Part shown: positions 10,593 through 12,671 of the stretch, one piece after another
Layout of the letters: each line of letters opens with the position of its first letter
Numbering within the stretch: the first letter of the stretch is position 1
Source of the DNA: Minisyncoccota bacterium
GTDB lineage: Bacteria; Patescibacteriota; Minisyncoccia; Phycocordibacterales; UBA1550
Assembly (NCBI GenBank): GCA_023229865.1
Contig: JALNYL010000006.1
Span: forward strand, 5,597 to 69,596
Direction: 5' to 3'
DNA: 64,000 bases
Program-made: the position numbers and the translations under genes
The notes under the pieces: generated by a model
What the model saw: only the letters and a program-made list of their open reading frames with translations
Told to the model about the DNA's origin: nothing
Databases searched by the model: none

Positions 10593-11075
10593 CTAATTCT
10601 CAATGCAACCATTACTAGCTGCGAAACCACATACTCCATCAAGTAGAAGTCCCCCTGCCTGTTTTTCTCGAGTTTTTATATCGAACATCATCAAACCACG
10701 ATGAGTTGACCAGAGATACCAGATTTTCGGGCTCCCATTCTTCTCAATGACTAGTGCTGGGCGTTCTCCCCGCAATCGAATTCTTTGGATTACCTTATAT
10801 ATCGATCCATTAAATTCCCATTTGTTTTGAAGAATCGAATTTCTTGGGACAGCAAATTCAAATACTTTTGAGACAACGCAATGAAATTCATTTTCTGCAT
10901 CACAAAATTTTGCGTCATATCCAACGTCTCCAACAATGACAGAGTTTGTTGTTCTGTCAATGGCGAAGCCGGGACCCTTTGATGGTATACGGATATATTC
11001 CGCAATTTGTTCAGCAAAACAGCACGTGGTAATAGTCCACGTAAAGAAGATAATTGGTATTGTTTTTACTTGCAT
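10593..11075 (-). CDS. exported hypothetical protein; candidate immunity protein for upstream Rhs-CT toxin (overlaps toxin stop by ~10 nt)
   Basis: N-terminal hydrophobic signal-like segment; position immediately downstream of toxin cassette; track start 11081 is TTG, ATG at 11075. Confidence 0.4.
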   Translation of the reverse strand: MQVKTIPIIFFTWTITTCCFAEQIAEYIRIPSKGPGFAIDRTTNSVIVGDVGYDAKFCDAENEFHCVVSKVFEFAVPRNSILQNKWEFNGSIYKVIQRIRLRGERPALVIEKNGSPKIWYLWSTHRGLMMFDIKTREKQAGGLLLDGVCGFAASNGCIEN

Positions 11076-11683
11076 GAGCAATCCCCTGAAAGGAATTTTC
11101 TAGCCCAAGCATCGGCGTCATTTTCGCCAGGTGCCTCTTTGCCAACAAGCGCGCGAGAATTATCCAAGCTATGATTTTCATTCATGAGGTGGCGGAACTC
11201 GTGCGTAAAGATTAGTGAAGGTCCGGGATCATGGGATGTGAGGTTGAAAAAGTCCCAATTAAATCGCGTTTCCTGGGTCGAATACCATGTGTCAGCAAAA
11301 CCAGTTCTAGCTCGATGAAATATATCATCTGCCTTTGGGTCAACGTAAACTTTCCAGTTATCAAATTTTGATTGGAGCGCTGCGCGATTCTTCTTGCATG
11401 TTGTATTTATCTGCGCTTGCATCAGACTGCCAAGATGCCACAAAAACGCCTCGCGCTTTCTTAATTCCGCTTCTGCGGCATCGCTAGATGGCTGCCCACG
11501 TCGTATAACATCATACAACCCATATGGGTCTGAATTGACTAACGGGTTGCTCCTTACATAGGCATACGTATTAACGCCACCTTCTAGTCCGACAGGATCG
11601 GATTGGATATATCTCGCAAGCGCATTCTCCTCATAACAAGCAAGCGCAAGAAATAGCACCACAACGTTTCTGAATCTGATCAT
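11066..11683 (-). CDS. orphan Rhs/YD-repeat C-terminal toxin module: signal peptide + Rhs core terminal junction + ~150-aa toxin domain with HExxH (putative zinc metallopeptidase toxin)
   Basis: [34 protein letters not shown] matches RHS-core end motif (DPxGL...NxYxYxxNPxxxxDPxGL); toxin region contains THEFRHL; SD GGGAG before ATG 11683 ([23 protein letters not shown]). Confidence 0.7.
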   Translation of the reverse strand: [205 protein letters not shown]

Positions 11684-11693
11684 TGCCATCTCC

Positions 11694-12671
11694 CTATTGA
11701 GCCAATCTCGCACGCTCCACGACTTGCTTGTACTGTGCCTTGTAGACCTCCGTTGGCATTCTCCAACCGAGCGCTTCTGCCTTGTCGTACCAAAGTCGAC
11801 TGTTACGATCCAAGAAAGCGTAATTCGACCGCTCTTCCAGCGGAATCAAGTCTGGTCTGGGATATTTGTTGATGAAACGGTCTTTGATCAACCTCGCGTA
11901 GGATGCGCCTTTGTGAAGCATGGCATTAACTGCTTTTGGCGAATACTCCAGCACCATATCAGAAGCCTCAATGGCCTTTTCGTATTGGTGCTTGTGCATG
12001 TAATGCTCGATCAGCGTATCTGTCATTAAAGCAACAGTTTCTTTTTTGCTTAGGGGGCGGAGATAGACGCCATTTGCGATGGCTTCGTCAGTCATGGGCA
12101 TTTGCTGCCTAAGCCACACATCTCGTGCCGTGTTTGCCCCGCTGGTCGCTTCGAGATTAATCCAGCCCTCATTGTTGGCTTTGTACTTCACGAATATGTG
12201 TTCGGGCGCAGTAGCGGCAGTCACTTCGAGGCCAAGCCGTTGCCCAAGGATGATGAAGAGGAAGGGCATGGAGACGCAATTGCCTTTTCTGGACTCCAAA
12301 TAGCTGGGCAGCAATTTATGGCTTATGTCTTCCCCATAAGGATCTGCCAAGTCGTACTGGTAGGGGCGCTGTCCATTCCATGGGTTGGCGGTATAAAGAT
12401 ACGTTCTTAAAACCTGTAGTTTTTCTGGGCTGGATGCATTGAATAGAAGCCCCATTTGGATGTTTGCCACCATCGAATCAATTTTTTTGAGGTTGGCCAT
12501 AATATCAATACTTGGGTCGATCATTTTGTCGATGGTCAGTTTTGCTTTGCCAAGATCAATCTGGTTTTCCGGCAGTCTTAGCATTGCTTGAATTGGACTG
12601 AGATCGTTGGCGAACGCAGCACTGCTTGGGACGGCCATAATCAGCAACAGAATCAGAAAAATACACCGCAT
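11694..12671 (-). CDS. secreted transglutaminase-like (papain-fold Cys-His-Asp) superfamily protein
   Basis: signal peptide MRCIFLILLLIMAVPSSAAFA; RKGNCVSMPFLFIILGQRLGLEV ... PEHIFVKY ... WINLEAT motifs resembling transglutaminase-like core; track start 12827 is TTG. Confidence 0.5.
   Translation of the reverse strand: MRCIFLILLLIMAVPSSAAFANDLSPIQAMLRLPENQIDLGKAKLTIDKMIDPSIDIMANLKKIDSMVANIQMGLLFNASSPEKLQVLRTYLYTANPWNGQRPYQYDLADPYGEDISHKLLPSYLESRKGNCVSMPFLFIILGQRLGLEVTAATAPEHIFVKYKANNEGWINLEATSGANTARDVWLRQQMPMTDEAIANGVYLRPLSKKETVALMTDTLIEHYMHKHQYEKAIEASDMVLEYSPKAVNAMLHKGASYARLIKDRFINKYPRPDLIPLEERSNYAFLDRNSRLWYDKAEALGWRMPTEVYKAQYKQVVERARLAQ

Follow-up and report, generated by a model that had tools for sequence, protein, structure and literature searches.

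A shell-less, Sec-exported toxin carrying the last residues of an Rhs core belongs to a widespread polymorphic toxin family linked to a transglutaminase-fold protein

The repeat shell of Rhs proteins is generally regarded as indispensable for the holding, protection and delivery of the toxin. Here we analysed a 64,000-nucleotide stretch of contig JALNYL010000006.1 (assembly GCA_023229865.1, Minisyncoccota bacterium; the window), in which a small toxin gene carries only the end of an Rhs core. This gene is one of three that are arranged head to tail on the minus strand. The leading gene (11694-12671) encodes a 325-residue protein with a signal peptide, a transglutaminase fold and TPRs, of the Transglut_core2/SirB1-like type (TG). 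It is followed by a gene (11066-11683) for a 205-residue pre-toxin, which is composed of a Sec signal peptide (residues 1-23, nt 11615-11683), an Rhs tail (residues 24-56, nt 11516-11614) and a C-terminal toxin domain (residues 57-205, nt 11069-11515). The last gene (10593-11075) encodes a 160-residue immunity candidate with the signal peptide MQVKTIPIIFFTWTITTCCFA, which is predicted to be periplasmic. A GGAG lies directly after the TAG stop codon of TG, and the ATG of the pre-toxin gene (at 11683) lies 6 nt further. The ATG of the immunity candidate (11075) falls within the final 10 nt of the pre-toxin gene, so that the two genes overlap by 10 nt. The locus is a tight three-gene operon of TG, pre-toxin and immunity gene, and all three products carry signal peptides as predicted from their sequences.

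The Rhs tail was recognised by the NCBIfam model TIGR03696 (Rhs_assc_core), which covers residues 20-56 of the pre-toxin with model positions 40-76 of 76 and scores 39.5 bits (cut-off 32.5). A phmmer search against PDB sequences aligned the tail with the final residues of the Rhs/TcC cores of Tse15, YenC2, TccC3 and Tse5. In Rhs proteins of known structure, the C-terminal plug is an aspartyl-protease domain and ends with this region; each DPxGL motif provides one of the two catalytic aspartates, and the cut follows the second motif (PMC8636562, PMC8765631). The tail corresponds to the last half of that plug. It contains both DPxGL motifs (D29 and D52), and the expected cleavage position is after L56. 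Only 23 residues precede the tail. RHS/YD repeats are absent from the 205-residue pre-toxin, which matched neither PF05593 nor TIGR01643 in the Pfam and NCBIfam searches. In an AlphaFold monomer model the tail is disordered (predicted local distance difference test, pLDDT, below 50), and residues 57-205 are modelled with confidence. The first-pass annotation of this DNA had described a sequence that closes the Rhs shell, set directly behind a signal-peptide-like N-terminus with no RHS repeats, and it was right on all three points. None of the outcomes that it had named as refuting its reading was seen.

Conservation of the tail was evaluated in 63 non-redundant relatives. Tail residues R1, D6, P7, G9, Y17, Y19, D29 and G32 are invariant. 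The mean identity is 63% in the tail, versus 25% in the last 20 residues of the leader. In the leader, position -1 is Ala in 61 of the 63 relatives and position -3 is A, V, T or S in the same number, and the A-x-A↓R[YF] junction is almost invariant across the family. Conservation of positions -1 and -3 in an otherwise divergent leader is what a genuine signal peptidase I site would show; in the window the cut is predicted after ALA. At the codon level, the tails differ by synonymous changes at about 13 of 33 positions per pair. These patterns indicate that the peptide and its signal peptidase I site are under selection, rather than a stretch of DNA serving for recombination. We also considered a lipoprotein reading of the LALAC stretch of the leader. 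It was rejected, since the Cys is replaced by Ser in the close relative P0008 and is missing in most members, while A-x-A↓R is kept.

TG matched the Pfam family Transglut_core2 (PF13369) with an E-value of 7.9e-10, above the gathering score, and gave a weak match to SirB1 in NCBIfam, in agreement with the earlier description of a secreted transglutaminase-like gene upstream of the toxin. Residues C132, H158 and E174 are invariant in 17 orthologues (38-84% identity), all of which have signal peptides, and in a second set of 36. Structural modelling predicts a menin-like transglutaminase plus TPR peptide-binding fold. The TG family is large, with at least 543 clusters at E<=1e-10 (90%-identity clusters) and 384 at E<=1e-30 (50%-identity representatives), and its proteins are almost always stand-alone. 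One metagenomic protein of 554 residues (P0250) is a fusion, in which a signal peptide and TG are joined to a segment resembling the Rhs tail and to a HEMGH zincin toxin different from that of the window, with no internal signal peptide. This fusion favours a physical association of TG with the tail-toxin. In another sequence (P0304), the TG and tail-toxin genes have apparently been merged in gene calling, and the internal signal peptide is retained.

The 149-residue toxin domain contains an HEFRH motif (residues 161-165, nt 11189-11203). A search with the domain found at least 70 homologues, most of which form the ends of ordinary Rhs proteins (...YNYFRDYDPxxGRY...), and a few of which sit behind a signal peptide and tail. 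H161, E162, F163, R164 and H165 are invariant among them, and C96, D115-P116, E187, D189, C202 and C204 are nearly so. In the structural model of the domain the HExxH helix lies within a zincin fold, and E187 and D189 are candidates for the third metal ligand. No significant match to the domain was found in Pfam, NCBIfam or PDB sequences. The NCBIfam search gave a weak match to Lit (E 0.07), and one homologue, P0029, bears a precomputed PF10463 annotation. A profile search of PDB sequences gave only apolipoprotein matches, which were rejected as spurious. Tox-MPTase, the M35 aspzincins such as deuterolysin, and Lit/U49 are zincin toxins that have the HExxH helix and zincin fold in common with the modelled domain, but the latter has no significant sequence match to them. 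As it lacks a significant Pfam, NCBIfam or PDB match, the domain is an unannotated toxin family, zincin-like according to the model. The putative zinc metallopeptidase proposed in the first-pass annotation thus fits the model, and the conserved cysteines point to an extracytoplasmic enzyme.

The immunity candidate follows this toxin domain into other contexts. Its homologues lie directly 3' of the same domain at a classical Rhs end (L022), within an rhs array that includes an orphan cassette (L020) and next to a leaderless copy (L021), and every one of them has a signal peptide and conserved Cys. The immunity candidate itself matched no Pfam or NCBIfam family. Judged from these sequences, such co-variation is what characterises a cognate immunity protein, as had been suggested from the overlap and predicted export of this gene, and its export signal points to a target in the envelope. 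The HEFRH domain and its partner would then be an unannotated toxin/immunity pair.

The module occurs repeatedly, with other toxins. Six close metagenomic relatives have the same three-gene layout; their contigs carry a 325-residue TG gene immediately upstream (70-84% identical) and a small overlapping open reading frame (ORF) downstream. Among close relatives, P0005-P0009 share the leader and tail, and their C-terminal domains are unrelated. When genomes were scanned with TG, 10 loci were obtained from proteobacterial metagenome-assembled genomes (MAGs), of Thiobacillus, Steroidobacter, Burkholderiaceae, Rhodocyclaceae and a delta-proteobacterium, and in 8 of the 10 a signal peptide-tail-toxin gene lies right after TG. 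In a scan of metagenomes with TG, which gave 306 contigs, the best 80 were fetched. A tail match on the TG strand was present in 76 of these 80 loci, and the other 4 contigs end within 250 nt of TG. Relative to the end of the TG match, the start of the tail gene nearly always falls in the interval from 46 nt before to 76 nt after. One subfamily has the reversed order of tail-toxin, immunity and TG, with the trio still together.

The 74 complete C-terminal domains fell into 44 clusters. One toxin domain matched TseH above the Pfam cut-off, and two are Tlde1/YkuD-like, just under it (29.0-29.9 versus 30.1 bits); these recognisable domains target the cell wall. Imm57 and Imm58 occur as immunity proteins in related loci, and L007 contains two cassettes, the second of which is TseH with Imm58. 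A hydrophobic segment starts 40 of the 54 distinct downstream ORFs. In total the family spans alpha-, beta-, gamma- and delta-proteobacteria, with well over 100 mostly proteobacterial loci. Interchangeable C-terminal domains and a co-varying downstream gene, which define a polymorphic toxin system in the sense of Zhang et al. 2012, are both present. These results indicate that the pre-toxin of the window belongs to a widespread, Sec-dependent polymorphic toxin family which is derived from Rhs and has lost the repeat shell. They also speak against the earlier suggestion that TG could be a second effector: TG is the conserved, obligately linked part while the toxin varies, it has no immunity gene of its own, and it is fused to a tail-toxin in P0250.

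Two further observations were made on the loci of this family. A gene for a small tyrosine recombinase (about 205 residues) adjoins the TG module in several loci that are unrelated to one another (L005/L006, L007, L011, L012, L043 and L067), which suggests that the module moves as a cassette. In plasmids of Mesorhizobium sp. L-2-11 (L024, 12958-13878), the tail gene behind TG is interrupted by a stop codon right after DPNGHI, and the toxin resumes in another frame. A Tn3-family transposase lies alongside this pair, which is probably a decaying copy.

A different arrangement was found in rhizobia. A tblastn search of plasmids detected TG homologues in Rhizobium lentis, Neorhizobium petrolearium and R. 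leguminosarum, in three loci (L023, 6506-13811; L025, 3359-11201; L026, 8405-11192) that encode a TcB/TcC-like shell, TG, a signal peptide-tail-toxin protein and an immunity-like ORF. The shell of R. lentis and N. petrolearium is exported, has about 1,830-1,860 residues and contains SpvB, FG-GAP, TcdB_midN and RHS repeats, and its gene overlaps the start codon of TG. The R. leguminosarum shell is intact at its C-terminal end only. The rhizobial shells end with ...YYDPAFGRF[V/I/L], match TIGR03696 positions 1-55 and carry no toxin. The tail protein has the pattern ANA↓[K/R]F[V/I]SPD...GTNRY.Y..NDP.NKSD.NGH followed by the toxin, it matches TIGR03696 positions 43-76, and the immunity-like ORF is next to it. 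The split point in rhizobia coincides with the signal-peptidase junction in the rest of the family. The type II secretion gene gspD is adjacent in L025 and L026. With the two rhizobial shells as tblastn queries, no shell homologue was detected in the 6-8 kb around TG at any of about 100 non-rhizobial loci, and the 64-kb window contains no shell or rhs gene elsewhere. The combination of SpvB/TcdB_midN with an RHS shell, a mark of the Tc toxin BC cocoon, is likewise absent from the window and was found only in L023, L025 and L026. From the rhizobial loci it seems that separate genes can encode an Rhs cocoon and its cargo.

Taken together, we consider it probable that the locus is a shell-less, Sec-exported three-gene module, in which the tail is recognised by TG in the periplasm. 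After export through Sec and removal of the signal peptide, the unstructured tail would serve as a handle for TG. TG could then hold the pre-toxin as a chaperone or adaptor, or cleave it near DPxGL and free a 17-kDa toxin; cleavage is favoured over holding because Cys-His-Glu is invariant. The target of the toxin would lie in the envelope, and the producer would be shielded by the immunity protein in its periplasm. Candidate routes for the exit from the producer are type II secretion, vesicles, lysis and a shell encoded elsewhere. For type II secretion, genes of the system were adjacent in 4 independent places among the 41 fetched loci of at least 8 kb. These are too few for a linkage rule, which was rejected, and they are taken as a hint only.

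Several points weigh against this interpretation. That TG binds or cleaves the tail is purely an inference. Both Rhs catalytic aspartates are within the tail, so self-cleavage free of TG is conceivable. The acid residue of TG is Glu where Asp is usual, and its closest fold match, menin, is catalytically inactive; therefore TG may be a binder only. About one fifth of the members have immunity candidates without export signals, and one member has a weak, below-cut-off TreTu-like match. Such members, whose toxins appear to act in the cytoplasm, would need entry into the target cytoplasm, which the model does not explain. The model also defines no export route across the outer membrane, and type II secretion genes lie next to few loci only.

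Other explanations were weighed against the same evidence. A bolder proposal, which we put forward tentatively and regard as rather unlikely, is that TG and the Rhs tail form a previously unrecognised route of maturation and delivery. In it, a menin-like and catalytically competent TG would recognise the 33-residue plug remnant in the periplasm, and the toxin would be released or, as the split genes of rhizobia hint, coupled in trans to a separately exported, toxin-less Rhs/TcBC shell, the whole being an outer-membrane-type module that possibly moved into the candidate phyla radiation (CPR) on a conjugative-type element. If this were true, the toxins would be interchangeable cargo loaded after translation. 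It is unlikely, in our estimation, that the family as a whole is a split Rhs system, with the tail-toxin as a detachable cargo joined in the periplasm to a separate, toxin-less Rhs/TcBC shell. The tail would then supply the last strands of the plug, TG would be an assembly factor or a shell-tail transpeptidase, and the window copy would need a distant shell. Transglutaminase-fold enzymes form acyl-enzyme intermediates which can be resolved by amines, and this chemistry would suit such a role. So would the three rhizobial plasmids, where an exported SpvB-TcdB-RHS shell is followed by TG and then by a tail-toxin split off exactly at the signal-peptidase junction of all other members, and the signal peptide-transglutaminase-RHS-toxin fusions of Zhang et al. 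2012 (PMC3482391). However, neither the surroundings of TG in the non-rhizobial loci nor the window offered a shell, as described above. P0250 joins TG straight to a tail-toxin with no shell, and we know of no precedent for loading a folded shell in trans.

The tail could instead be a self-contained autoprotease or pro-peptide that keeps an autonomous toxin inactive until the DPxGL aspartates cut it, with TG being unrelated or regulatory. Both catalytic aspartates and the scissile site are indeed found, invariant, within 33 residues, and the toxin domain has the normal size of an Rhs toxin. But the solved proteases are plugs of about 80-95 residues embedded in a barrel, of which only the last half exists here and is predicted to be disordered alone; the near-obligate linkage to TG and the TG fusion would also be left unexplained. 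We therefore think this quite unlikely. Orphan cassettes with a core fragment are well known, and the first-pass annotation had left two options, a displaced toxin tip awaiting recombination or a stand-alone secreted toxin. As an orphan, the gene would be a silent recombination substrate for a full-length rhs gene, and its signal peptide would be fortuitous. The same toxin domain is indeed also carried by the ends of classical Rhs proteins and by a genuine orphan array (L020), and leaderless fragments lie 3' of some modules (L049, L083). Nevertheless, the pre-toxin gene has its own ribosome-binding site and ATG and is translationally coupled to TG, the signal-peptidase site is kept in over 60 leaders that otherwise diverge, about 100 loci have no rhs gene upstream, and the high synonymous divergence of the tails leaves no DNA-homology handle. 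The orphan option is thus very improbable, and the stand-alone secreted toxin is closer to the truth.

The shell-less, TG-linked module shares features with several known systems. Rhs/TcC polymorphic toxins, such as the Rhs effectors of type VI secretion systems, the Tc BC cocoons and WapA, have the same DPxGL-(18)-DPxGL segment before a polymorphic toxin and a downstream immunity gene, and the toxin domain of the window is found on classical Rhs proteins. In contrast to them, the window protein has no YD/RHS repeats, and hence no shell to encapsulate the toxin, and no PAAR, VgrG-binding or TcB-interacting N-terminus; its Sec signal peptide is joined exactly to the tail, and TG is an obligate partner gene. 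Zhang et al. 2012 reported fused signal peptide-inactive transglutaminase-RHS-toxin proteins, listed Imm57 and Imm58, and proposed a peptide-binding role for the transglutaminase module (PMC3482391). Those proteins tie a transglutaminase fold to Sec-exported Rhs-type toxins, as here (PMC3482391). They are fused, have lost the catalytic residues and keep a full RHS array, whereas in the present family TG is separate, its Cys-His-Glu is invariant and the array is absent.

LapG-type bacterial transglutaminase-like cysteine proteinases are small, single-domain, Ca-dependent proteases with Cys-His-Asp, which cut a di-alanine site in adhesins of type I secretion systems. The window TG differs from LapG by its added, menin-like TPR domain and its Glu acid residue. 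A similar logic is known from MafA-MafB-MafI of Neisseria and SitB-SitA-SitI of Myxococcus, which combine an accessory gene, a Sec-exported variable toxin and an immunity gene, sometimes with extra cassettes. No sequence relationship to the Maf and Sit cassettes was found; the conserved module here is the 33-residue Rhs tail, and the accessory protein has a transglutaminase/TPR fold. In the full-text literature, whose coverage was incomplete so that an earlier description is possible, we found neither the shell-less, TG-linked tail family nor the rhizobial split described.

These comparisons bear on how Rhs toxins are understood. A large family has discarded the shell and kept the last 33 Rhs residues under strong purifying selection, fused to a Sec signal peptide and encoded beside TG. 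The Rhs tail therefore appears to be functional in itself, serving as a tag for recognition or cleavage. The uncharacterised and widespread SirB1/Transglut_core2 fold gains a concrete candidate function. With only three small genes, the module is also a compact, testable system for the maturation and exit of Sec-exported polymorphic toxins.

The host of the module is less clear. Genes for a short ValRS, TsaD, HisRS and RNase J are located at 26-64 kb of the window, and Candidatus Pacebacteria is the label of the source MAG. The first 25 kb encode a large serine recombinase (3624-5444), TraD/HerA-like ATPases (13264-15993 and 17360-18520) and RadC (18601-19224). The flanking 909-residue ATPase is closest to genes of Methylomagnum and Sulfitobacter plasmids. 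In tetranucleotide usage, 1-25 kb correlates with the remaining sequence at r 0.76-0.83, while the two halves of that remainder correlate with each other at 0.92. Wherever the neighbours of a module relative are informative, the relative comes from a bacterium with an outer membrane. The region 1-25 kb resembles a mobile element of proteobacterial type that is joined here to a CPR-like chromosome, for which horizontal acquisition and an assembly or binning chimera are both possible, and the assignment of the module's host to the CPR is doubtful. The CPR-like genome of the first-pass annotation would fit 26-64 kb and is doubtful for 1-25 kb, which differs in composition and whose toxin module has its relatives in Proteobacteria or other outer-membrane bacteria. 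No convincing att-type repeats were found for the putative element. A 31-nt copy of the 5' end of tRNA-Phe, 87% identical, lies 82 nt upstream of the gene (28024-28054 and 28106-28136) and may be an integration remnant or a decayed duplicate.

A pair of genes of the ribosomally synthesised and post-translationally modified peptide (RiPP) type (8653-10244) lies directly downstream of the toxin module. It consists of a 59-residue ORF (10065-10244, minus strand) ending in ...SICCDVLSCSVK, which is a candidate RiPP precursor, and a radical SAM/SPASM peptide maturase (8653-10029, minus strand) closest to the TIGR04463 'C-rich' RiPP maturases. The RiPP genes are followed by a 139-residue membrane ORF (8131-8550, minus strand) and a DNA/RNA non-specific endonuclease with a signal peptide (PF01223; 7017-8081, minus strand), and these two could be further secreted weaponry on the same element.

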